Source: Candidatus Parcubacteria bacterium
Lineage (GTDB): Bacteria > Patescibacteriota > Saccharimonadia > UBA4664 > JBIOIQ01
Direction: 5' to 3'
NCBI GenBank assembly: GCA_963718875.1
Contig: OY970378.1
Span: 324,396 to 388,395 of the forward strand
Length of the DNA stretch: 64,000 nucleotides
The notes beneath the pieces are model-generated. The model saw only the letters and a list, made by a program, of their open reading frames with translations, made no database searches and had not been told where the DNA came from. Below are positions 173 to 43,721 of this stretch, one piece after another (position 1 is the first letter of the stretch; every line of letters starts with the position of its first letter). The position numbers and the translations under genes are program-made.

Positions 173-601
173 ATGGCTAATTTGGCTACGAAAAATTTGG
201 CTACGAAAAACAGTGAAAAAAGAGTTGTAATACTTCATCTTGCAACAGTGTTTGCTGCCTTAGTATTTTCATATGTTTTTGGATGGATCGCGAACTTTAT
301 CGGTAATAATGATTTGATGTGTGCTGGTATAGGGAGTATAGGCGGCTGCGATCGGAACAACATATTTATATATTTGTTTGGTTTCTATTTTTCGCTCATA
401 TTCTGCTTAACATTTTTGCATTTTTTTTACCTTACAAATAAATTTCGCTTATATTTGTTTCTCGTAATGCCCTTATTGGCATTTGGGTCGTTAGAGTTGG
501 AGGTTCTTAAGATAGCCATCTTTTTTCTGGTGACTGCTATTTTATTAGGGGTTGCTTTTTCAAGGCTGCTTTTCTTATTGAAAAGCAATAGTAGGGCTTA
601 G
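173..601 (+). CDS. hypothetical polytopic membrane protein (start uncertain; ORF opens at 128)
   Basis: ORF 128-601 is hydrophobic throughout. The internal ATG at 173 precedes a short ANLATKN x2 repeat. Confidence 0.4.
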   Translation: MANLATKNLATKNSEKRVVILHLATVFAALVFSYVFGWIANFIGNNDLMCAGIGSIGGCDRNNIFIYLFGFYFSLIFCLTFLHFFYLTNKFRLYLFLVMPLLAFGSLELEVLKIAIFFLVTAILLGVAFSRLLFLLKSNSRA

Positions 602-1794
602 GCAGGTTGGTAAAACATAAGACCTAGCTTAATCTGGAGTGCGTCGTCAAAGTGACGAGGGTCGAGAGAGATGAGCTTTTTGGTTTTATCTAGGCGATAA
701 ATCAGGGTGTTGCGGTGGATATGGAGGTTTTTGGAGGCGTCTGTCAGGTTAAGGCCGCTGTCTAAAAAAACCTTAACTGTCTTATATAGTTGTTGATCTC
801 GCAACAGTGGGTGAAGTATTTGATGGGCAAGCTCGGCTTTACGATCTTGCCCAATGTTAGCCAGCGTCACAAACATTCCCACCTGCTTTACGTGATAAAC
901 GCGGTTGGTCCCCCAAACTTTTTTACCAACCGTGACAGCCAATTTGGCGTCTTGATAGCTCTTACGCAGACCGCCTAGGTTGGGATAATATTGCCCAACT
1001 CCCACCGTAAGATGGAATTTATGTTGTAAATAATTCAACATCTCATATACTTGCTGACCTTTTTCGGTCATAAAACGAATGGTGTTTAAGGTGTTGGCGC
1101 TGCTTCCAGCAATGCCTTTTAGGATTACAAAAGTATCTTCTCCCAGGTATGACACTATGTTTTCTTGGTTTTTATTGAACCCTTCTCTCAGTTTTAAAAT
1201 TATATTATCGATAGCAGTACGTAATGTAACGCGCTGCTCCTCAGATGACAGATGATCGTTTTCGGCCGAAACAATAGCCTCAAAGTCGGTTAATTTTGCC
1301 AATATTACGGCTTGAGTTGCCCGCAAATTGAGCTGTAAAATGTCGGCTTGGTGATAGGCCTCGTCGTAGTCTACGTGTGAGGCAGAAAGGAGATCCTTTA
1401 TAAAGTCGGCCCGCACAATTTCGGGCGACTGCATTTTATCGAGCAACAAGTATTGGTGGATAATAACTTCGGCAAGGCCTTGAAGTAGGCTAACAGTTTC
1501 TGTAGCTATGGTTTCGTCATTACCGGTAACTCCAAATACGCCAATTACTTGTTGCTCGTAAACAAAGGGAATCCATTCTACTTTGTCGCTACCCAAAGTT
1601 CCTGCTATTCGCTTGTCTTCTTGGCAGGCTTGCAGGGCCTCGGCCACAAACTTACCGTTACTGCGAGCGCTTCCTACCAGCAAGGTGCCGGTGGCGTTGG
1701 CAATTACTATTTCGCGGTCCAAAATGCTTTTGGCCTTGTCGCGGATTTGTTTAGCGAGTTCTTTTGTGAGTTCCATAATTTTATTGTTCAACAA
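598..1794 (-). CDS. CdaR/PucR-family transcriptional regulator
   Basis: 398 aa. C-terminal PucR-type HTH (LHIHRNTLIYRLDKTKKLISLDPRHFDDALQIKLGL) and N-terminal GGDEF-like sensory region typical of sugar-diacid regulator CdaR. Confidence 0.75.
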   Translation of the reverse strand: MLNNKIMELTKELAKQIRDKAKSILDREIVIANATGTLLVGSARSNGKFVAEALQACQEDKRIAGTLGSDKVEWIPFVYEQQVIGVFGVTGNDETIATETVSLLQGLAEVIIHQYLLLDKMQSPEIVRADFIKDLLSASHVDYDEAYHQADILQLNLRATQAVILAKLTDFEAIVSAENDHLSSEEQRVTLRTAIDNIILKLREGFNKNQENIVSYLGEDTFVILKGIAGSSANTLNTIRFMTEKGQQVYEMLNYLQHKFHLTVGVGQYYPNLGGLRKSYQDAKLAVTVGKKVWGTNRVYHVKQVGMFVTLANIGQDRKAELAHQILHPLLRDQQLYKTVKVFLDSGLNLTDASKNLHIHRNTLIYRLDKTKKLISLDPRHFDDALQIKLGLMFYQPA

Positions 1795-2929
1795 ACCGGG
1801 TGAATAATATAGCTAGCCGTATCTGTACAGCATCATCAAATCGTCGGGGATCCAGGCCAAGAGTTTCGGAGATACGATCAAGGCGATATACCAATGTATT
1901 GCGGTGAATACTAAGCTCTTCGGCAGTGCGGGTAAGGCTCATATCGTAATTAAAGAAGGCTTCGAGGGTTTGAATGATTTCACTATTTTCCCCTAGGCGG
2001 TCAAGCAGTTCGCGGCTGAAATAAATGTTGGTTTCATCGATACCAGAGAGCAGTGGGGCCACAACGCCAAAGTCGTCAATGCGGTAAATGCGATCGGTGC
2101 CCCACATTTGACCACCTAGTTCGATGGCCGAGATGGCTTCGGTATAGCTTGTACGCAAGCCTCCGAGTCCAGGATGATAGTTGCCGACGCCGACACTAGT
2201 TGGGAGTTTAAGCTCGGATTTAATGATGTCGTAGATGGTGTTGATGGACTTTTTGAAAGAATCGAGGCTTTCTTCTAGTGCGCCGTTACTGGCGAGGGAT
2301 TTGAGGATGCAAAACTTGTTTTGGCCAATGTAGGCTACGATGTTGTCGTAACTTGATGTGTAGAATGATCTTAAGCCGCGATCAATACCAGCTTTGTAGC
2401 GAGCGATGCGAATTTCGCGGTCACTGGAAGGGTCGGAAAATGAAGAGGTAAGGGCGGGATCCTCAACATAAATAACAATGGCGATGCGGGGAGCCGTTAG
2501 GTCGATATCAAAAAGACGAGCCTCGGCAATCAGGAGAGGCTCATCACTTAAAGATCGGTGAAGGATGTCATAAATAAACTTATCTAGGCGCTCTTCTTGG
2601 CGCGGAATTTGGTCGATCAAAATTGATTGGTGCATAACTAGCTCGGCAATGGAACGCACCAACGGAGTTATCTCCTCGTGGTTGGGCATGGCTTGAGCTA
2701 AGACAATGTAGCCCACTACTTGGCCGCCATAATTGAAAGGGATAGCCGTGCTTGTAAGCTCAAGATCAATCATTTCATCGGCCTGGGGATCGTTACTGGC
2801 CATAACCATGCCTCGGGGCTCGACGACGGAAAGCTCACGGTTAACTAAGCCTCCCACTTTTGCTCTAATCTTCTCAGCTATGTGTTGACTCAGCACCCCG
2901 TCACCTTCCGTTAGAATATGAATTAGCAA
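1781..2929 (-). CDS. CdaR/PucR-family transcriptional regulator (tandem paralog)
   Basis: 382 aa with the same architecture (LSIHRNTLVYRLDRISETLGLDPRRFDDAVQIRLAILF). Overlaps the previous gene by 14 nt. Confidence 0.75.
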   Translation of the reverse strand: MLIHILTEGDGVLSQHIAEKIRAKVGGLVNRELSVVEPRGMVMASNDPQADEMIDLELTSTAIPFNYGGQVVGYIVLAQAMPNHEEITPLVRSIAELVMHQSILIDQIPRQEERLDKFIYDILHRSLSDEPLLIAEARLFDIDLTAPRIAIVIYVEDPALTSSFSDPSSDREIRIARYKAGIDRGLRSFYTSSYDNIVAYIGQNKFCILKSLASNGALEESLDSFKKSINTIYDIIKSELKLPTSVGVGNYHPGLGGLRTSYTEAISAIELGGQMWGTDRIYRIDDFGVVAPLLSGIDETNIYFSRELLDRLGENSEIIQTLEAFFNYDMSLTRTAEELSIHRNTLVYRLDRISETLGLDPRRFDDAVQIRLAILFTRFVEQ

Positions 2930-3158: not shown

Positions 3159-3689
3159 TTAAAGTGAGGCTTTGAGTTTTTCCAATGCCTGCCTGCGCGC
3201 GCTGATGCGGTTTTTATCGGCAAAAGACATTTGGGCTTGAGTTTGATCAAAGCCATCGGGCATAAAAATAGGATCAAAACCAAAGCCGTTTTGGCCATTG
3301 GGAGGAACAATGGTACCTCCGGTGGAAGCAGAAAAATAGGTAATCTCGGTGCGGTTTTTGGCATAGCCATAGGTTACGCTTGATGTGGCGTCATAGAGCT
3401 CCATTTTGTGGGCTAGCTCGTAAATACCGTGCGGCTCAAGTACGTGGATAAACCACTTTATAAGCGGCCCAGGGAGGCCGCCAAGGCAGGCTAGCTCCAA
3501 AGAGACGTCTTCGACTATGAACGGCCCTTCATGGTGGTCAAAAGCGGCTTGAAGCTTAGCTTCAATGACCTTGCGAGGATCAAGGGACTGGATTTCGCGT
3601 AAGTTAACGTCTAATTGCTTCAAACGGGGCAATATAGCAGAAGCTTCAGCAAATTTTCCAGCGTTGCCTGTAATGAAGTAGATTGTCAT
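3159..3689 (-). CDS. rdgB: non-canonical purine NTP pyrophosphatase (RdgB/HAM1 ITPase family)
   Basis: MTIYFITGNAGKFAEA N-terminus and FGFDPIF motif. Start moved to the internal ATG at 3689. Confidence 0.8.
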   Translation of the reverse strand: MTIYFITGNAGKFAEASAILPRLKQLDVNLREIQSLDPRKVIEAKLQAAFDHHEGPFIVEDVSLELACLGGLPGPLIKWFIHVLEPHGIYELAHKMELYDATSSVTYGYAKNRTEITYFSASTGGTIVPPNGQNGFGFDPIFMPDGFDQTQAQMSFADKNRISARRQALEKLKASL

Positions 3690-3851
3690 AAAGATATTAT
3701 AGCTTGATTTGAAATTCCTTACCCAAGGCTTTATAGTGAGTAGCACGCGTTTTACTTAGGAGTTGTTAGGTATAGCAGTATCTCTCACCCGAAGGTCTTG
3801 CGGGAAACAGTGAAGCTTTGATCAAGGCCACTCTATCAAAGGAGCAGAATC

Positions 3852-4556
3852 GTGGGTCGGGTACTGATGGTGATTGGTGGTTCCGGTACTATTGGTGAGG
3901 CGGTCATCGCACAGGCTTTGGCGGACGGCTTTCGGGTCGCTGCCACTTGGAACAGCACGGTTCCTGCAGATAGCGATGACGTGCTATGGGTCCGCTGCGA
4001 TGTAGCTGATCCCGCGTCGGTTGACTCTGCGTTTACCCGGGTCGAAGCCGACCTGGGAGATGTAGAGATCCTGGTGTTCAATGCCGGCGTCAACGCGGAC
4101 GGCATGGCTCTTCGGATGACGGATGAGCAGTGGAGGAATGTGCTCAGTACAAACCTGGATGGTGCATTCTACGCCTGCCGCCGGGCTATGGCCAAGATGG
4201 TGCGTGCTCGCTGGGGTCGAATGATCGTGGTTGGCTCTGTGGTTGCTTTAACCGGAAGCGCGGGTCAGGCAAACTACGCCGCCGCCAAAGCGGGGCTGAT
4301 CGGGCTCGTTAGGGCGTTGGCGCGCGAGCTTGCCGGCCGAAACATCACCGTCAATGTGGTGGCGCCAGGTCCGATTACATCGCGAATGACCTATGCGCTG
4401 ACGTCCGAAAGGCGTGCTGAAATCGTGGCGAAAGTGCCGTTGCGGCGCCTCGGCGAGGGCCAAGATGTGGCTGAGGCGGTGGCGTTCCTGTGGTGGGCTG
4501 GGTACGTGACCGGGGCGGTCATTCCCGTTGACGGCGGTCTGGGCATGGGCCACTAG
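3852..4556 (+). CDS. SDR-family oxidoreductase (FabG-like), in a high-GC island
   Basis: GGSGTIG Rossmann motif, NAG, and YAAAKAG (YxxxK) catalytic motif. GTG start with AAGGAG Shine-Dalgarno. Local GC about 65% by eye against about 45% flanks. Confidence 0.75.
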   Translation: MGRVLMVIGGSGTIGEAVIAQALADGFRVAATWNSTVPADSDDVLWVRCDVADPASVDSAFTRVEADLGDVEILVFNAGVNADGMALRMTDEQWRNVLSTNLDGAFYACRRAMAKMVRARWGRMIVVGSVVALTGSAGQANYAAAKAGLIGLVRALARELAGRNITVNVVAPGPITSRMTYALTSERRAEIVAKVPLRRLGEGQDVAEAVAFLWWAGYVTGAVIPVDGGLGMGH

Positions 4557-4751
4557 GCGGGTGAGGCTGACTGTGTTGCGGGGCGATGGGATAGTCCCGC
4601 TGCCTCGCAACACCTTTTATTTTAAGTCGGATTTGTTGAATAACCGGCGTCATTCGGCTATACTTTCAGCTTGTACCGAGTACAATTTTCAATTTTCATT
4701 CAAAGTGCGCTTAATGAAACTTGAAACTTTAAGTAAATGAAACTTAGATAT

Positions 4752-4828
4752 GGGCCCTTAGCTCAGTTGGCTAGAGCGCTTCCTTGACGTGGAAGAGGTC
4801 AGAGGTTCGAGTCCTCTAGGGCCCACCA
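4752..4828 (+). tRNA. tRNA-Val (anticodon GAC)
   Basis: Cloverleaf folded by hand: acceptor GGGCCCT/AGGGCCC, anticodon stem CTTCC/GGAAG with loop TTGACGT, T-loop TTCGAGT, encoded CCA. Confidence 0.85.
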
Positions 4829-5044: not shown

Positions 5045-5120
5045 GGATCCGTAGCTCAGCGGTTAGAGTACTCGGTTCACATCCGAGGGGTCGGTGGTTC
5101 GAACCCACCCGGGTCCACCA
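5045..5120 (+). tRNA. tRNA-Val (anticodon CAC)
   Basis: Acceptor GGATCCG/CGGGTCC, anticodon stem CTCGG/CCGAG with loop TTCACAT, T-loop TTCGAAC, encoded CCA. Confidence 0.8.
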
Positions 5121-19154: not shown

Positions 19155-19233
19155 ACGGTTTGTAAATGAAAACGGGGGAGGCGCCGGGCGGATGCCCGGG
19201 CGTCTCCCCCGTGGGGGACTTGTTGTTCGACTG

Positions 19234-19734
19234 TCAGCGTCGGCTGGGGGTGCCGCCCCTGACCACCCGTTGGGTGGGGGTGGGGTTAGCTGCCGTAGGG
19301 CGGCGGTCTGTCTTGGCCCTGCGGATTCGGGCCGCACGCTGCCTGGCGCTTCTGTCCAGGACAATGCGCTCGTCGATCGAGTGATAGAGACGGTCGATCA
19401 GGCCAGTGATCACTTCGGCGATGAGGATGCCGATGAAGCCGATGACGGAGGCGCCGAAGAAGACGATTGGCAGGTGGAGGTACGGGTGGAACTGGTCGAG
19501 TTCGGAGGCGACGGTGTTGGTGATGCCCGTCCCGATGAACAAGAAGAAGACACTCGCCAACAATCCACCGATCTCGGAGTCGAAGATCATGGTCATCAGG
19601 TAGCGGCACATGGCGCCGACGGTGAGAGCCACGACGGCAACGATCATGCCGATCTCGAGCATCATGACGAACTCGACGAACCCGTTGTGGCTCGCGTAGA
19701 GGTGCCACAACGGAGCGATCATGCCGAGGAGCAT
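19234..19734 (-). CDS. hypothetical membrane protein, high-GC island (start uncertain)
   Basis: 4-5 TM helices and an Arg-rich C-terminal tail. GC about 62% by eye. The opposite-strand ORF 19192-19818 is acidic low-complexity and judged antisense noise. Confidence 0.4.
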   Translation of the reverse strand: MLLGMIAPLWHLYASHNGFVEFVMMLEIGMIVAVVALTVGAMCRYLMTMIFDSEIGGLLASVFFLFIGTGITNTVASELDQFHPYLHLPIVFFGASVIGFIGILIAEVITGLIDRLYHSIDERIVLDRSARQRAARIRRAKTDRRPTAANPTPTQRVVRGGTPSRR

Positions 19735-19951
19735 GACGAGGGTAGCGTTGGCCGCCCTCTGGAAGGAAGATTTCAAAGTTCTACCTGCTTTCGGAAAGGG
19801 TGGTTTCTCCACCGGTAAACTTACGAGCCCATTATTACGCTTTTTGACGTAAATGTCAAGGATTTTCTTTCTTCGCCCCACTCTAGACCGAACTCAGCGT
19901 AATGTAGAACGAAAGATCGGAGGCTAGTGTGCTTAATGCTACAATGACATT

Positions 19952-21001: not shown

Positions 21002-21016
21002 TGAAAATTGATGCCG

Positions 21017-21090
21017 GGGTGTGGCGCAGTTGGTAGCGCGTACGGCTGGGGGCCGTGAGGCCGCAGGTTCGAGTCCTGTCACCCCGACCA
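21017..21090 (+). tRNA. tRNA-Pro (anticodon GGG)
   Basis: Acceptor CGGGGTG/CACCCCG, anticodon stem TACGG/CCGTG with loop CTGGGGG, T-loop TTCGAGT, encoded CCA. Confidence 0.8.
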
Positions 21091-21133
21091 GCTTTTAAGG
21101 CCTATTTCTTTATTTTTATAGGACAACACGAAT

Positions 21134-21152
21134 CCAGAGGTTTAACCTCTAG
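21134..21152. repeat. cassette-boundary palindrome copy 1 (CCAGAGGTTTAACCTCTAG)
   Basis: 19-bp near-perfect palindrome 44 bp downstream of tRNA-Pro. Confidence 0.8.
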
Positions 21153-21257
21153 CTCTGATAATACTTTCAAAATGCCGTCCTGAAACTTCAATTTATTGAT
21201 TGAAAACTCGGGATGGTACCGGAGACCCTGCGCGTGCACGGTCTCCGGTGGTTGTTG

Positions 21258-21992
21258 CTACCTCTCGTGAGGTGGGCGGAAGAGGATCCGGAGGTCCTCC
21301 TTGTAGCCCAGTCGCTCGAGGATGAGCGAGAGGACTCCGTTGAAGCTGTTCTTGGAGTCGGGACAAGCTTCCTCTAGTGAGTAGCTCAGGACTTCCACCC
21401 CCGGACGAACCGGAAGGTAGCCGTGGCGGTCCTTGCTGTGCGGGTCGCGCACGTGGACTGTGAGGCTCTCTAGCGTCAGCTCGATGTGCTCGAGCGTTCC
21501 GCTGAGGTGGTACTGCCCGTTGATGCGGTAGATGACGATCTCGCCTCCGATGTAGCCGGAGAGTTGATCATTGGCGATGAGGTCGGCGATCCAGTTGCGC
21601 TTGGGGATGATGCCCCACGCGATGGCTCGTGGGCCCTTCTCACCCGGTACTACCTTCATGATGATGCGACTGGGGTTGCGCCCGCGCGAGCGGACGTAGC
21701 TCTCAGTTGAGGGCTTGTCGGTCAGGACGGGTTCGTCGGCGGTGCCGGTGACCTCACGGCATCCCTCCTTGCGGAAGAACACCGAGATGGGTCGACGCTG
21801 CTGATCGCGAACGCCGCTCTGTTCGGCGAAGCCGAACCCCTTGGCATCATCGTAGTGCGTGACGTATCCCGTCGCGATGACGGGGGTGTTGCTGGACTGG
21901 TTGCTCACGGTACACTCCTTCGAAGATCGTTCGGATGAACTGGTACAGGCTTGTGAGCCCGCACCTCTCGAAGAAGGTATCGCGTCTTGCAC
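21258..21992 (-). CDS. cold-shock-domain-like protein with C-terminal extension, high-GC island (start uncertain)
   Basis: GYVTHYDDAKGFGFA resembles the CSD RNP motif. GC about 60% by eye. Confidence 0.4.
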   Translation of the reverse strand: MQDAIPSSRGAGSQACTSSSERSSKECTVSNQSSNTPVIATGYVTHYDDAKGFGFAEQSGVRDQQRRPISVFFRKEGCREVTGTADEPVLTDKPSTESYVRSRGRNPSRIIMKVVPGEKGPRAIAWGIIPKRNWIADLIANDQLSGYIGGEIVIYRINGQYHLSGTLEHIELTLESLTVHVRDPHSKDRHGYLPVRPGVEVLSYSLEEACPDSKNSFNGVLSLILERLGYKEDLRILFRPPHER

Positions 21993-22143
21993 AAGATGCG
22001 GGAGTAGGAGGGGTTACCTACATAAGTTGGGCTTTCTCGGTTTGTTGCCGGTGCACCACGCCACAGCCGATCCTCCTTTCAAAAGTAGTCGGATGGACGA
22101 AGATAACTAGTATTATATCATACTCTTATAACAATTGCAAAAT

Positions 22144-23079: not shown

Positions 23080-23847
23080 ATGTCTATTTCTGTAGACAGC
23101 ACGATTAAAACTAAAACGGCTTTGGTTACGGGTGTATCCCGAGGAATAGGGAAAGCTATTTGCGAACAGTTGAGCGTTGAGGGGTATCGAGTTATTGGTA
23201 CGTACAACCAGGGGCTGGAAGAGTCGCAAACGCTGCAGCGAGAGTTGGGTGAGGTGGAGTTTTTTCAGGTCGATTTTGGCAATCGAGCTGAAACCACCAC
23301 CTTTTTAGAGGTTTTGAAGGGGCGAAAGTTTGAGGCCATTGTTAATAACGCCGGGACTATCGACTTTCAGCAGTTTAGTAAGTATGAAATGAAGGGTTGG
23401 GATAATACACTTGAGGTCAATTTGGGTGTGCCTATGTTGCTGGTGGCGGGCTTGCAGCATAATATTTGTGATGGTGGTTCGGTAGTTAATATTGCCAGCA
23501 CAGATGGATCGATAGGCTCGTTTGCAAGCATTGCTTATTCAGCCAGCAAGTCGGCCTTAATGAATGTCACCAAGAGTCTGGCTAATAATCTGGGCTCTCG
23601 GGGTATACGAGTAAATGCTGTGGCACCTGGGTGGATTAATACCGATATGGATACAGAAGTAGTGGGGGAGTCAGAAAAGCTGACACCGCTCGGAAGAAAT
23701 GGTACACCGGGGGAAGTTGCGGATTTGGTGAGTTTTTTATTGTCGGATAAGGCTGCTTTCATTACTGGAGCTACAGTTGTCATCGATGGCGGATACACCT
23801 GCGTCGATTACGTTATGAAGCTGGAAAACGAGTTGGAACAGGGCTAG
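23080..23847 (+). CDS. SDR-family oxidoreductase (3-oxoacyl-ACP reductase-like)
   Basis: TGVSRGIGKA Rossmann motif, NNAG, and YSASKSA (YxxxK) motif. Stop codon TAG lies inside palindrome copy 3. Confidence 0.75.
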   Translation: MSISVDSTIKTKTALVTGVSRGIGKAICEQLSVEGYRVIGTYNQGLEESQTLQRELGEVEFFQVDFGNRAETTTFLEVLKGRKFEAIVNNAGTIDFQQFSKYEMKGWDNTLEVNLGVPMLLVAGLQHNICDGGSVVNIASTDGSIGSFASIAYSASKSALMNVTKSLANNLGSRGIRVNAVAPGWINTDMDTEVVGESEKLTPLGRNGTPGEVADLVSFLLSDKAAFITGATVVIDGGYTCVDYVMKLENELEQG

Positions 23848-29596: not shown

Positions 29597-29971
29597 ATGC
29601 CATTAATAAGATGTGATTACTCTAAAGAACAAATTTCTGAGCAGCAAATTAGCGAGATAGTAAAATTATTACTCAAAGTGTCTGAAGACGCGTTTAATTA
29701 TTCTCCTGAGCAAGCACTTGAGTTGGTGTCGATTTTTTCTGCTCCTTATGGTAAGTCGGATCATTCGGCCGCTGCAGCAGAAATTGAATTAAGAGCTAAA
29801 ATTGGTGAATTTGATCATCCTGCTATGTCTAGGGATGAGGTGCGTGTGCTGAAAATGCAACCTTATGAGGTGGCGTTAAAAGATTATATTCAAAGAGAAA
29901 ATCTTGTAAACGGTATTGTATTTACGATTACTTTTGAAGATTGGAAAGTTTCGTTTTTGCCTGGATCCTAA
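29597..29971 (+). CDS. tautomerase-superfamily-like protein (N-terminal Pro1; Tautomerase_3-like), native GC
   Basis: Begins MPLIRCDY. About 124 aa. Confidence 0.35.
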   Translation: MPLIRCDYSKEQISEQQISEIVKLLLKVSEDAFNYSPEQALELVSIFSAPYGKSDHSAAAAEIELRAKIGEFDHPAMSRDEVRVLKMQPYEVALKDYIQRENLVNGIVFTITFEDWKVSFLPGS

Positions 29972-30089
29972 TTGACTAGTTTAAAAAGCATTCGAGCCCG
30001 CGTTAGCGGGCAAGAATGCCTACTAATCACGGGCTCGGCGGAGTGACCTAGTATTTAATGGACTAGGTACGGCTCCTTGCACTGCACGG

Positions 30090-30467
30090 TTACTTCGTTT
30101 CGGTCCAGACGTAGGGACCGAGCTTGGTCCAGCTTGCCACCTTGCGGTCGGTGGCCAGGAGTTCCTTGACCCGCCTGTCGATTTCGAGGCCGCGCTCTGG
30201 CAGATTGGCAGCGCGGTCTGGGTAGTCCATGGCCTCGATGTCGAGCACGACGCCAGCGTTGCTGTGGTTGCCGGGACCGGAGACGTCGAACGGATAGAAC
30301 TCCGTGTCCTCGTCGGGGTCGAGCTGGATGAACGTGCCGGCATCGCCGATGGGGTTGGGAACGAAACAGGAATGCACGGCGGCGACGATCGCGCGGATGC
30401 CAGCCTCGTTGTCCCTCACTGTCTGAACAAGGTCAGGATCGCTTATGTAAGCCTTGATGAGGGGCAT
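30090..30467 (-). CDS. tautomerase-superfamily-like protein (N-terminal Pro1), high-GC xenolog of the adjacent gene
   Basis: Begins MPLIKAYI. About 125 aa. GC about 60% by eye. Confidence 0.35.
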   Translation of the reverse strand: MPLIKAYISDPDLVQTVRDNEAGIRAIVAAVHSCFVPNPIGDAGTFIQLDPDEDTEFYPFDVSGPGNHSNAGVVLDIEAMDYPDRAANLPERGLEIDRRVKELLATDRKVASWTKLGPYVWTETK

Positions 30468-30611
30468 GTGAGCCCTCCTCTGTGTTTGGGGGTGTGCAAG
30501 GGGCGTCTCGGAACTGCCGAGTCAGTCGCTTCTGTCTCCAGATTTGATCACTACATGATATCACAAGTGTCATAAAAAGTCAAACTATATTTTTTGAGTT
30601 TCACCTCAATC

Positions 30612-37742: not shown

Positions 37743-38508
37743 ATTTTAAATTCAGAGACCTACCTACTAAATATTGTACGATTGAGCTTGTGTTTTTTAG
37801 TAGTAATTATTATTGACTCAGTGTTGCTTAAAGTGTAGAATTGACTCTGCTTCGAAGCGCACCGTTACTTGGTCGCAGAGATGCACTCCGGCATGACAAG
37901 TCGTCTTCCGGGGTTACCATAGGCCACTCGTACCTGATAGAAGGAGGGGATGATGGGACGTTGAGCCCAAAGTTCTCATATTCTACTCGCGTACCGGGTT
38001 GCCGCCAGGCAGATCCGAAGGCTATCTCGGCCTGAAGTAAATCCTGAGGGCAACCCTGGGAACTAGATCTGCGATCCTCCTTCCCAGGGGAGGTAGCAGA
38101 ATGGTCATAGGCGCCTGCAGCGCCAACGGCCCCAAAGCGAGGAGATGAACTCCGGCCCACGGTCAACTATCGACCTCGCTGCGGTTTGGAAAGACTGCAA
38201 GGCCGCGCCGCAATGGCAGCCGCTTGCAGCAAAAACGCGGAAAAGACTTTCGCGTTTTTGTCCAGGTGAGAACGTGTTCTCACCAATATTTGCTCGTGAC
38301 GACCTCATCGACAACCCCCCCACGTTACCGATGAACGTCACGAGCAAAATTTCCCCGGTAACGGCAACTTCCTCTCCGCTCACTCTCTTTGTAGTGTCGG
38401 AGCGGAGTCGTTACCGGGGTAGTGTCCCCAATGATCCTGGATTTTTTCAGGGTCTACCATAAGGCCCTTAGTTTTCAAAAGGAACTCGGGGTCTTTTTCT
38501 TAACTTAA

Positions 38509-42580: not shown

Positions 42581-42639
42581 GATAAAAACATTGTTGATGC
42601 CCCGACCAAGCGCAACAAAATGCGCAAGGTCGGGGCATC
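42581..42639 (-). terminator. intrinsic terminator downstream of the Flp pilin gene
   Basis: 12-bp perfect stem GATGCCCCGACC/GGTCGGGGCATC (42596-42607 and 42628-42639) followed on the minus strand by a T-rich tract. Confidence 0.55.
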
Positions 42640-42656
42640 TGGGTGCGGATGCCGTG

Positions 42657-42830
42657 CTACTGAGTGGCTGTAGTCGCGGTGGTGGGTGGGGTGTTGGAGC
42701 TGGTGTCTTCGCCCATGGTGGTCAGGGCCACGATGCAGACCACGGCGATGAGGGCCATGAGTAGGGCGTACTCGATGAGAGCCGAACCCGCCTCGGTTGT
42801 GCTCCTGCGAATTGCTTTCATGTGCTGCAT
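42657..42830 (-). CDS. Flp/Fap-family type IVb pilin (Tad pilus major subunit), high-GC island
   Basis: MKAIRRSTTEAGSALIEYALLMALIAVVCIVAL matches the Flp motif. GGGAGG Shine-Dalgarno. GC about 60% by eye. Confidence 0.6.
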   Translation of the reverse strand: MQHMKAIRRSTTEAGSALIEYALLMALIAVVCIVALTTMGEDTSSNTPPTTATTATQ

Positions 42831-42902
42831 GAAACCTCCCTGTAGTTGGAACATATATGGTAATGGAAACTGATGCTCCTGCTGTCAAACGGGGCAAGGC
42901 CT

Positions 42903-43217
42903 CTAGTGTATGTGTCTTTCGGCCGCCCGTCCGAGCTCGTCACCAACGCGGCCGTCTCGTTCGCCCACAGACTGCGCGAAAGCTTGGCCTCTAACCTTGT
43001 CGAGCTCCCAACCGGCTACAAATACTGCCACCAGAAGTGGCAAAGTCAGAGTCTTGCACACAAGGGTGACCCATCCTGGGAGTTGTTGCTCAAAGCCGTA
43101 CCAGGTCATGGCCACAACAAAAGCCACGGCTGCTAGAGTCAGAAAGCGTGTCCATGCCGCGCCGTTCTTGGCGGGCCGAAGACGACTCAGCTCTGTGAGA
43201 TCTGCAAAATCATCCAT
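42903..43217 (-). CDS. hypothetical membrane protein in the high-GC Flp island (strand call tentative)
   Basis: Two TM helices. Co-oriented with the Flp gene. The overlapping plus-strand ORF 42873-43136 was rejected. Confidence 0.3.
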   Translation of the reverse strand: MDDFADLTELSRLRPAKNGAAWTRFLTLAAVAFVVAMTWYGFEQQLPGWVTLVCKTLTLPLLVAVFVAGWELDKVRGQAFAQSVGERDGRVGDELGRAAERHIH

Positions 43218-43324
43218 TTCCCGCTCCTAGCGTCGACGTTTCTGCCTGCGGATGCAGGTTTAAAATATAATAATATAATTGCTAGCACTTGTAAAATATT
43301 CTTGATTAACTACCCTCAAAAATG

Positions 43325-43330
43325 CTATAA
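43325..43330 (+). promoter_or_regulatory. TATAAT -10 box for ssrA
   Basis: TATAAT lies 12 nt upstream of the tmRNA 5' GGGG. Confidence 0.4.
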
Positions 43331-43342
43331 TTTTGAACACAT

Positions 43343-43721
43343 GGGGCTGATATTAGCTTCGACGTGAGGACATTTACAAACTACTCGGCAGGTCGCAGGC
43401 AGGCGTTACTATCCAAACAATAAACAAATCACAACTTTGTTTCACGGGTGAAGTCGCTCTTTGCAGTTCCTTCATTCGCACCTGCTTTCGCCTAAACACG
43501 AAAGCCATCGTCTCCCTGATGCCCGGTAGGGGACAGACGGTGCCAATTATCGGGACGCTTCCCGCCATTTGCCTCATTGGTGGGACTAAGACTTGAGGTT
43601 GCTGCGTTTGATTATCTTGTCTGTTCTAAGATCAGCGCTTAAGACAATTGAATAGGATAAGCCTGTAGAAGAGTAGTGCGTAACTTCGCGGACCGGGGTG
43701 CAATTCCCCGCAGCTCCACCA
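43343..43721 (+). ncRNA. ssrA: transfer-messenger RNA (tmRNA, SsrA)
   Basis: 5' GGGGCTGATATTAGCTTCGACGTGAGG and 3' GGACCGGGGTGCAATTCCCCGCAGCTCCACCA (T-arm plus acceptor plus CCA). The 5' and 3' ends pair as a tRNA-like domain. I did not resolve the tag reading frame. Confidence 0.8.

Follow-up and report, generated by a model that had tools for sequence, protein, structure and literature searches.

How did a GC-rich gene (GC, guanine plus cytosine) come to lie in bacterial DNA of about 45% GC, and does it still serve the genome that carries it? The question is raised by a gene for a short-chain dehydrogenase/reductase (SDR) in 64,000 nt of a Candidatus Parcubacteria bacterium assigned to the Saccharimonadia (contig OY970378.1, positions 324,396 to 388,395; the whole of this stretch is called the window below), in which an earlier note had seen a likely recent acquisition from a high-GC donor. 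Our genomic scans covered the window, and homologues and the contigs of relatives came from protein and metagenome databases. We consider it probable that the gene is a xenolog, that is, a FabG1/MabA-type gene from a high-GC, Actinomycetota-like donor that was inserted singly into the spacer between rdgB and a transfer RNA (tRNA) gene for valine, and whose GC content at third codon positions (GC3) is by now half-ameliorated. The gene in question is the following:

3852-4556, plus strand: SDR gene, 234 amino acids (aa), resembling a FabG1/MabA-type 3-oxoacyl-acyl carrier protein (ACP) reductase by profile, alignment and structure-library matches

The gene is compositionally foreign to its 45% GC host. 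The window as a whole has 45.4% GC, and 500-bp windows within it average 45.5% with a standard deviation (sd) of 4.4%; the one at 4001-4500 reaches 61.8%. The open reading frame (ORF) of the SDR measures 62.0% GC (z = 7.0 relative to 34 native ORFs, which have 44.9 ± 2.4% and a maximum of 48.8%). GC at its first, second and third codon positions (GC1, GC2 and GC3) is 0.677, 0.506 and 0.672, respectively, and the last of these compares with a window median of 0.434 (sd 0.071, estimated from the median absolute deviation; z = 3.3). When a native codon-usage model was set against a 70% GC actinobacterial model, the difference in log-likelihood (native minus actinobacterial) was +0.21 for the SDR gene versus 1.25 ± 0.20 (minimum 0.81) for native genes, a displacement of about 5 sd, and synonymous usage was intermediate. 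Windowed GC, GC3 and codon usage, the three measures by which the earlier note had proposed to check its impression, all mark the gene as an outlier. The note was right to call the gene GC-rich, although its estimate of 65% by eye was slightly too high, and the codons it saw as dominant (GCC, GCG, CGG and GTG) agree roughly with those counted as commonest (GTG 15, GCG 15, GGC 10, GGT 10, GCT 10, GCC 9, CGG 6). Its figure of about 45% for the neighbours fits rdgB, which is native in composition at 46.4%, and the second SDR gene that it described as native, at 23080-23847, indeed has 46.9% GC and a GC3 of 0.488. The abrupt end of elevated GC that it placed near 4620 falls at 4608 in a maximum-likelihood two-state segmentation, about 140 nt short of the tRNA-Val gene at 4752. 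The segment delimited in this way, 3894-4608, has 62.9% GC and lies between 200-nt flanks of 44% and 39.5%, while a 150-bp sliding window puts the GC-rich stretch at 3815-4665.

The relatives of the protein point to the Actinomycetota as the source. In a search of 5.8 billion proteins, the only matches closer than 57-69% identity were identical copies from the same organism, and the next 119 matches listed lay within that range. All six taxon-named sequences among the best 120 matches belong to the Acidimicrobiales or Actinomycetota, and no Saccharimonadia homologue of this FabG type occurs within those 120. Two relatives that we sampled lie on contigs of 70-71% GC, inside a fabD-x-fabH-fabG-acpP-fabF operon of type II fatty-acid synthesis (FAS-II), with GC3 of 0.87-0.90. 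The expectation that the closest homologues would prove to be actinobacterial was thus borne out, by the named matches and by these two GC-rich contigs. Nucleotide identity between the SDR gene and its nearest relatives is 68-70%.

The word "recent" in the earlier note fared less well. Compared with the two donor-type fabG genes, the SDR gene is lower by 0.06 to 0.08 in GC1, by 0.03 to 0.07 in GC2 and by 0.20 to 0.23 in GC3, and because the fall is largest at third positions it fits amelioration from a donor of about 70% GC within a 45% GC genome, in the order of codon positions that would follow from the Lawrence-Ochman amelioration model. A GC3 of 0.67 stands about midway between the donor-type genes (0.87-0.90) and the host (0.43); the transfer would then be old enough for third positions to have drifted about halfway to host composition. 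Alternatively, the donor may have been an unsampled organism of moderately high GC. A neighbour-joining tree of 117 aligned homologues places the SDR as deep sister of 109 sequences, with a terminal branch of 0.207 versus a median of 0.025. A best match of only about 64-67% identity, this long and deep branch, and a GC3 halfway to that of the host all speak against a recent event. The root-to-tip distance in the same tree is ordinary (0.765 versus a homologue median of 0.743 ± 0.016), which argues against a pseudogene-like acceleration of the SDR. Saccharimonadia have been reported as epibionts of other bacteria, often Actinomycetota, in keeping with the earlier suggestion of an epibiont with an actinobacterial host; the further step, from an actinobacterial donor to the very host on which this organism lived, with entry by uptake of host DNA, may be correct.

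On the evidence of its Pfam matches, the predicted protein is a classical SDR (adh_short_C2, PF13561, 166.5 bits, 1e-48, cut-off 27; adh_short, PF00106, 151.2 bits, cut-off 26.6). Its best NCBIfam model is mycolic_FabG1 (NF040605), which aligns end to end (residues 3-234 with positions 2-233 of 233), with the general FabG model TIGR01830 in second place. Among solved structures the top matches are 2nm0, 5ovj/5ovk/5ovl and 1uzl/1uzm/1uzn, which we take to be the FabG/MabA proteins of Streptomyces coelicolor, Mycobacterium smegmatis and M. tuberculosis, respectively; E. coli FabG (1i01) ranks lower. The N-terminus, MGRVLMVIGG, lines up with the MGGR(I/V)ALVTGG of homologues, the catalytic tetrad is kept in invariant columns (N101, S129, Y142 and K146, with YxxxK reading YAAAK), and the short beta2-alpha3 loop is typical of forms of about 233-236 residues. 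Additionally, the protein shares with its homologues an actinobacterial-type C-terminal signature, VIPVDGGLGMGH.

Retention of the fold, of the catalytic tetrad and of 88 among 99 highly conserved positions suggests that the protein is most likely still an NAD(P)H-dependent ketoreductase. Its Rossmann fold would bind the dinucleotide, the carbonyl of the substrate would be polarised and protonated by Ser129 and Tyr142, and the proton relay would be completed by Lys146 and Asn101. When the window was searched by tblastn with FabD, FabH, AcpP, FabF, FabA and FabI from the donor-type loci, only the two SDRs were matched. Because no ACP or condensing enzyme lies nearby, the substrates are probably host-derived, either 3-oxoacyl thioesters or other carbonyl compounds, and a role in de novo fatty-acid synthesis is not expected; the enzyme would be a stand-alone reductase, possibly with a changed cofactor preference. 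Candidate phyla radiation (CPR) bacteria, Saccharibacteria among them, are reported to have no synthesis of membrane lipids (PMC10939385).

The SDR gene has the following neighbours and putative expression signals:

598-2929, minus strand: two tandem paralogous CdaR-like regulators (Diacid_rec/GGDEF_2/HTH_30) of 398 and 382 aa, with a 14-nt overlap between their ORFs
3159-3746, minus strand: rdgB/Ham1, XTP/dITP diphosphatase, native in composition, divergent from the SDR gene and to its left; the likely start gives 176 aa (3159-3689)
3709-3737, plus strand: sigma-70-like promoter TTGAAA-17-TATAGT (10 of 12 matches) in AT-rich DNA of native type, about 115 nt 5' of the SDR start
3839-3844, plus strand: Shine-Dalgarno sequence AAGGAG, 7 nt before the GTG start codon of the SDR gene
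4573-4623, plus strand: intrinsic-terminator-like GC-rich hairpin with 19-nt arms (4573-4591/4595-4613, 79% complementary), followed by CTTTTATTTT
4752-4828, plus strand: tRNA-Val(GAC), the right neighbour of the SDR gene
5045-5120: tRNA-Val(CAC), a second tRNA-Val gene

Only the coding sequence of the donor's FAS-II operon gene would have survived here, driven by the AT-rich promoter and closed by a hairpin terminator of its own; in donor-type loci, fabG runs straight into acpP. The hairpin (4573-4613) forms the 3' edge of the GC-rich segment, and a strict terminator scan made no call at 4573-4623. A separately assembled Logan contig (run ERR12037361) contains the order regulator-regulator-Ham1-SDR together with about 230 nt downstream. 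The regulator next to rdgB is 85% identical to its copy in a Candidatus Saccharimonadia metagenome-assembled genome (L001) and 80% identical to that on a second contig (L002). Two proteins of the window have identical copies on a 1,189,924-bp contig in NCBI/ENA, which makes a near-complete Saccharimonadia genome the source of the window. Neither relative has the SDR gene at this locus: in L001, tgt stands beside the regulator and synteny is broken, and in L002 the tRNA-Val pair stands directly next to the regulator, some 500 nt away. When metagenomes were scanned with the rdgB protein for an empty site, 80 loci came back, the best 54% identical and none of them syntenic, and no closer relative emerged.

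The CdaR-like regulator pair is conserved in both relatives. L002 (DATIHE010000027.1) is titled "Candidatus Nanoarchaeia archaeon" despite its 80%-identical CdaR-like pair and its bacterial tRNA-Val genes, and is probably mis-binned or mislabelled; an ORF of 60% GC adjoins the same tRNA-Val pair there.

Several observations weigh against an acquired actinobacterial FabG that has been kept in use. Just 6 of the 120 listed matches bear a taxon name, and the closest relatives are about 60-67% identical to the protein, so that with a maximum of about 67% there is no close donor sequence. The nesting within a high-GC clade that phylogenies had been expected to confirm was not obtained, as the SDR is a deep sister to most of its homologues in the neighbour-joining tree, which is weakly rooted on a paralog of 29% identity. 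No integrase or recombinase ORF lies beside the gene, the flanking repeats are short and chance-like, and tblastn found no remnant of fabH or acpP adjoining it. L002 lacks rdgB as well as the SDR gene and thus provides no clean empty site, and the absence of FAS-II genes applies to a 64-kb window of a 1.19 Mb genome. The protein itself falls short of both NCBIfam equivalog cut-offs (257.6 versus 420 for mycolic_FabG1; 243.8 versus 297.75 for TIGR01830). In place of the dinucleotide-binding motif TGxxxGxG it reads IGGSGTIG where homologues have TGGSRGIG; T8 has become Ile and G13 has become Thr, both at positions 99% conserved among the 117 homologues, an Arg and one Gly are lost, and the glycine spacing now resembles, as we read it, the TGxxGxxG pattern of extended SDRs. 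Two residues are deleted near the C-terminus (FLW--WAGY versus FLASDAAGY). Furthermore, 11 of the 99 positions that are at least 95% conserved among homologues are altered (homologues: median 0, 95th percentile 6), and the dinucleotide-binding region, residues 6-27, holds six of these 11. To judge from these changes, either the original activity or the preference for a cofactor may have been altered or lost. Because the score cut-offs, the canonical glycine motif and the pathway context all fail, we call the protein FabG1/MabA-like and not FabG.

Such changes are what would be seen in a decaying passenger whose frame is open merely because GC-rich sequence contains few stop codons. That reading accounts for the excess of altered conserved positions, the modified glycine-rich loop and C-terminal deletion, the scores under the family cut-offs and the lack of pathway partners in 64 kb. 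It has more difficulty with a 234-codon frame that remains intact and free of frameshifts despite about 35% protein divergence and a half-ameliorated GC3, with the retention of all four catalytic residues and of most conserved positions, with a normal root-to-tip length, and with the presence of a good Shine-Dalgarno sequence, a promoter-like site and a terminator. Moreover, streamlined genomes of about 1.2 Mb shed useless DNA quickly. We regard a decaying passenger as unlikely, and the SDR gene is apparently domesticated.

Elsewhere in the window the earlier note had listed four further high-GC segments. These are real, and segmentation placed them as follows:

19173-19762, minus strand: GC-rich segment; small membrane protein encoded in frame with ORF 19234-19881 (GC3 0.787)
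21209-22076, minus strand: GC-rich segment with ORF 21258-21992 (216-244 aa, GC3 0.78); promoter-like site at 22140-22112
29993-30529, minus strand: GC-rich segment with ORF 30090-30467 (125 aa, GC3 0.80); promoter-like site at 30583-30555
42599-43258, minus strand: GC-rich segment with a Flp/Fap-like pilin (42657-42854, 65 aa, GC3 0.76; sub-threshold Pfam match); promoter-like site at 43295-43267
42903-43217, minus strand: 104-aa membrane ORF in this last segment, GC3 0.56

By segmentation, each of these four islands has 58-64% GC, and their best-supported ORFs have GC3 of 0.76-0.80. In the first, a promoter-like site with 11 of 12 matches (19859-19831) falls inside the long ORF, so that the true start of the membrane protein is probably an internal Met. 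Structure prediction gives the protein of the second island a cold-shock domain at the N-terminus and a beta-rich domain at the C-terminus (predicted local distance difference test score, pLDDT, 84), and that of the third a tautomerase-superfamily fold with an N-terminal Met-Pro (pLDDT 86). The latter belongs to a rare, orphan family, with 11 matches among 1.84 billion representatives. No relatives were traced for the proteins of 19173-19762 and 42599-43258.

The tautomerase-like ORF at 30090-30467 (minus strand, 61.6% GC) converges on a neighbour at 29597-29971 (plus strand, 124 aa, 36.8% GC), and both proteins start with MPLI, Pro1 being a hallmark of tautomerases. Paralogy of the two was considered and left unproven: BLASTP gave no match, hhalign returned E = 0.0056 but a probability of 6.5%, and a tandem partner in contig L092 gave no help. 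In contig L091 (ENA k119_246353) the gene order forms a perfect palindrome (175-539-55-213 aa, then 213-55-539-175 aa), likely a hairpin assembly artefact, and we did not use it as evidence.

The family encoded by 21209-22076 could be followed into other genomes. Eight homologues were found, only in Saccharimonadia-like contigs, the closest being 49% identical and located on a contig of 56% GC. An actinobacterial identity of that contig was rejected, as its AtpD is 85% identical to "Ca. Saccharimonadia" proteins and a poor match to the mycobacterial ATP synthase. The family exceeds its surroundings in GC content in each of the genomes examined, with GC3 of 0.84-0.85 in backgrounds of 53-56% GC and of 0.96-0.98 in contigs L093 and L095, where it stands beside genes with GC3 near 0.5. 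The GC-rich blocks that hold the homologues in these two contigs are:

L093, 832-2537: GC-rich block embedded in genes of about 46-50% GC
L095, 1-2386: GC-rich block embedded in genes of about 46-50% GC, with one extra GC-rich gene of 245 aa

The block is about 90% identical between the two contigs, including a spacer of 28-55% GC between its two genes. Its synonymous divergence (dS) is 0.12, with a ratio of nonsynonymous to synonymous divergence (dN/dS) near 1, versus a dS of 1.5 and a dN/dS of 0.04 for the adjacent native glyoxalase gene. A dS so far below that of its neighbour indicates that the block is younger than the split between the genomes and moved horizontally. The AT-rich spacers within it would not be expected of a plain fragment of a 70% GC genome, and among Saccharimonadia-like genomes the block acts like a unit that is mobile or was exchanged recently. 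A phage or plasmid origin found no support: nothing was matched when the island proteins and the L093 neighbour were run by tblastn against 50,697 phage and 72,556 plasmid records, PHROGs likewise yielded no match, and a scan of IMG/VR with the profile of the 21209-22076 family found no relative. The claim of repeated uptake from one kind of genome does not hold up for these islands, given that the homologues of 21209-22076 occur in Saccharimonadia-like contigs and not in Actinomycetota and that 29993-30529 represents a rare orphan family. Hence, a single donor does not follow from similar GC signatures within a genome, and such an inference is unsafe here because at least one of the islands represents a GC-rich gene family in circulation among Saccharimonadia themselves.

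The same family suggests another possible source for the SDR gene itself, which would still be foreign but would have come most immediately from a different high-GC lineage or an intermediate, for example from a pool of GC-rich single genes circulating among Saccharimonadia. The deep branching of the SDR and the lack of a close donor leave room for this, its codons fit a model built on 56% GC Saccharimonadia (-1.81) better than the 70% GC actinobacterial one (-2.16), Saccharimonadia contigs of 53-56% GC exist, and the 21209-22076 family demonstrably moves between such genomes. Set against this, every taxon-named relative is actinobacterial, the best 120 matches include no Saccharimonadia homologue, the fall in GC is greatest at GC3, as amelioration from a donor of about 70% GC would have it, and CPR bacteria without membrane-lipid synthesis (PMC10939385) are unlikely long-term reservoirs of FAS-II genes. 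We find an immediate source of this kind distinctly unlikely.

A native origin, with the GC content set by amino-acid composition or by gene-specific selection, is very improbable. Ala, Val, Gly and Arg are abundant in the protein (38, 31, 26 and 19 of 234 residues, respectively), which raises GC1 and GC2, and at least one other GC-rich family stays GC-rich across several Saccharimonadia backgrounds. However, GC3, which is independent of amino-acid content, is also an outlier, the native SDR paralog of the same fold has 46.9% GC, no Saccharimonadia orthologue appears among the best 120 matches, the gene is missing from the loci of two relatives, and its nearest relatives belong to another phylum. 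Still less credible is an assembly chimera or contamination in which actinobacterial reads were built into the contig of a Saccharimonadia genome. Chimeras can occur in metagenome assemblies, and the sample would also contain Actinomycetota, but the 0.7-kb segment is flanked on both sides by native sequence within a 1.19 Mb contig, its edges coincide with expression signals of native type, the separately assembled Logan contig reproduces it from the regulators to the downstream flank, and a true actinobacterial fragment would have fabH/acpP remnants and a GC3 near 0.9, neither of which is seen.

An origin of the SDR gene in an Actinomycetota-like donor thus remains the reading we prefer, and the five coding islands can be compared with respect to their anatomy. 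In all five, a promoter-like site with at least 10 of 12 matches lies on the same strand in AT-rich DNA just beyond the 5' GC boundary. GC-rich sequence sets in 2-30 nt after the predicted transcription start in 21209-22076, 29993-30529 and 42599-43258, about 60 nt after it in 19173-19762, and about 70-150 nt after it for the SDR. Likewise, each of the five ends in a GC-rich hairpin at its 3' boundary, so that with promoter-like sites upstream the islands have the form of transcription units. A distance of about 85-145 nt separates three of the five from a tRNA or transfer-messenger RNA (tmRNA) gene, with no integrase and no repeat: the SDR segment and tRNA-Val (4608-4752), the 21209-22076 island, whose start follows about 120 nt after tRNA-Pro at 21015-21090 (21090-21209), and the 42599-43258 island, whose end precedes the tmRNA at 43343-43721 by about 85 nt (43258-43343). 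A rough estimate, based on about 7 of 70 intergenic slots, puts the chance of such proximity at P ~0.01. No boundary motif emerged, as 8-mers common to the edges of the five islands were no commoner than in shuffled sequence.

It is tempting to see the SDR gene as one case of foreign or mobile genes held as transcript-shaped single-gene units, drawn from a pool of GC-rich cassettes that moves among epibiont genomes, and perhaps captured from hosts one gene at a time, conceivably by way of RNA intermediates or a recombination of cassette type, instead of as host DNA in random pieces. The evidence for such a pool comes from one family on a handful of contigs, and we offer the idea as a long shot.

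One further GC-rich stretch of the window was considered as a sixth gene island:

37830-38480, plus strand: non-coding stretch of about 630 nt and about 56% GC (GC-rich part about 37857-38442), candidate large structured RNA

It was rejected as a gene because 37857-38442 has no codon periodicity in any frame. Compared with shuffled sequence, the stretch folds much better (z = -7.0 on the plus strand and -6.2 on the minus strand), with many long hairpins, and the plus strand has a sigma-70-like promoter with 10 of 12 matches (37813-37841) and a terminator-like hairpin (38449-38468). Rfam gave no match to 37830-38480 even at E <= 1, and we consider it a candidate large structured RNA without a family match.

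The SDR can be set beside several known systems. Like FabG1/MabA (NF040605; 1uzl, 5ovj, 2nm0), it matches the model over its full length and has a short beta2-alpha3 loop, the Asn/Ser/Tyr/Lys tetrad and a DGGxGMGH tail, and it is 60-67% identical to FabG of Acidimicrobiales; unlike them, it scores 258 instead of 420 bits, carries the IGGSGTIG loop and a 2-residue deletion, and sits outside any FAS-II operon in a CPR genome. Minisyncoccus archaeiphilus has a FabG of unclear role together with FabK, a FabA-like protein and AccC, and no complete fatty-acid pathway (PMC12281837). The SDR is likewise a FabG-like reductase kept in a CPR genome without a complete pathway, whereas the FabG of Minisyncoccus is accompanied by other fatty-acid synthesis genes and the SDR stands alone in its 64-kb window and is clearly xenologous. 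Classical tRNA-linked islands share with it a deviant composition and a position adjoining a tRNA gene, and for three of the five coding islands the nearest tRNA or tmRNA gene is no more than about 150 nt away. In contrast to integrase-mediated islands of 10-100 kb, those found here measure 0.6-0.9 kb, and the SDR is a single gene that lies 5' of tRNA-Val, with no integrase, no direct repeats and no repeats of the tRNA 3' end.

Horizontal transfer into Saccharibacteria and other Patescibacteria has been described (PMC7427843, PMC12455944), and transfers between Saccharimonadia and their actinobacterial hosts have been reported for Ca. Lutisaccharimonas with Ca. Phosphoribacter and for Microsaccharimonas with Leucobacter, at more than 99% identity (bioRxiv 10.64898/2026.09.16.751625). 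The SDR gene resembles these cases in the pair of phyla, the inferred direction, the gene-sized pieces and the epibiont lifestyle as a likely opportunity. It differs in that those transfers are very recent, near-identical and were found by identity, whereas the SDR was found by composition and appears old and partly ameliorated, with 68-70% nucleotide identity and an unsampled donor. Transfer between Saccharimonadia and Actinomycetota as such is therefore already published, and the SDR adds an older, partly ameliorated case.

The ultrasmall Saccharimonadia depend on other bacteria, in many cases Actinomycetota, and for most of them no host is known. Genes derived from hosts are among the few clues to host identity that genomes alone can give, and they also show which functions have been added to a minimal metabolism. 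A lipid-pathway reductase in a lineage reported to be without membrane-lipid synthesis hints at an epibiont that processes acyl compounds of its host.

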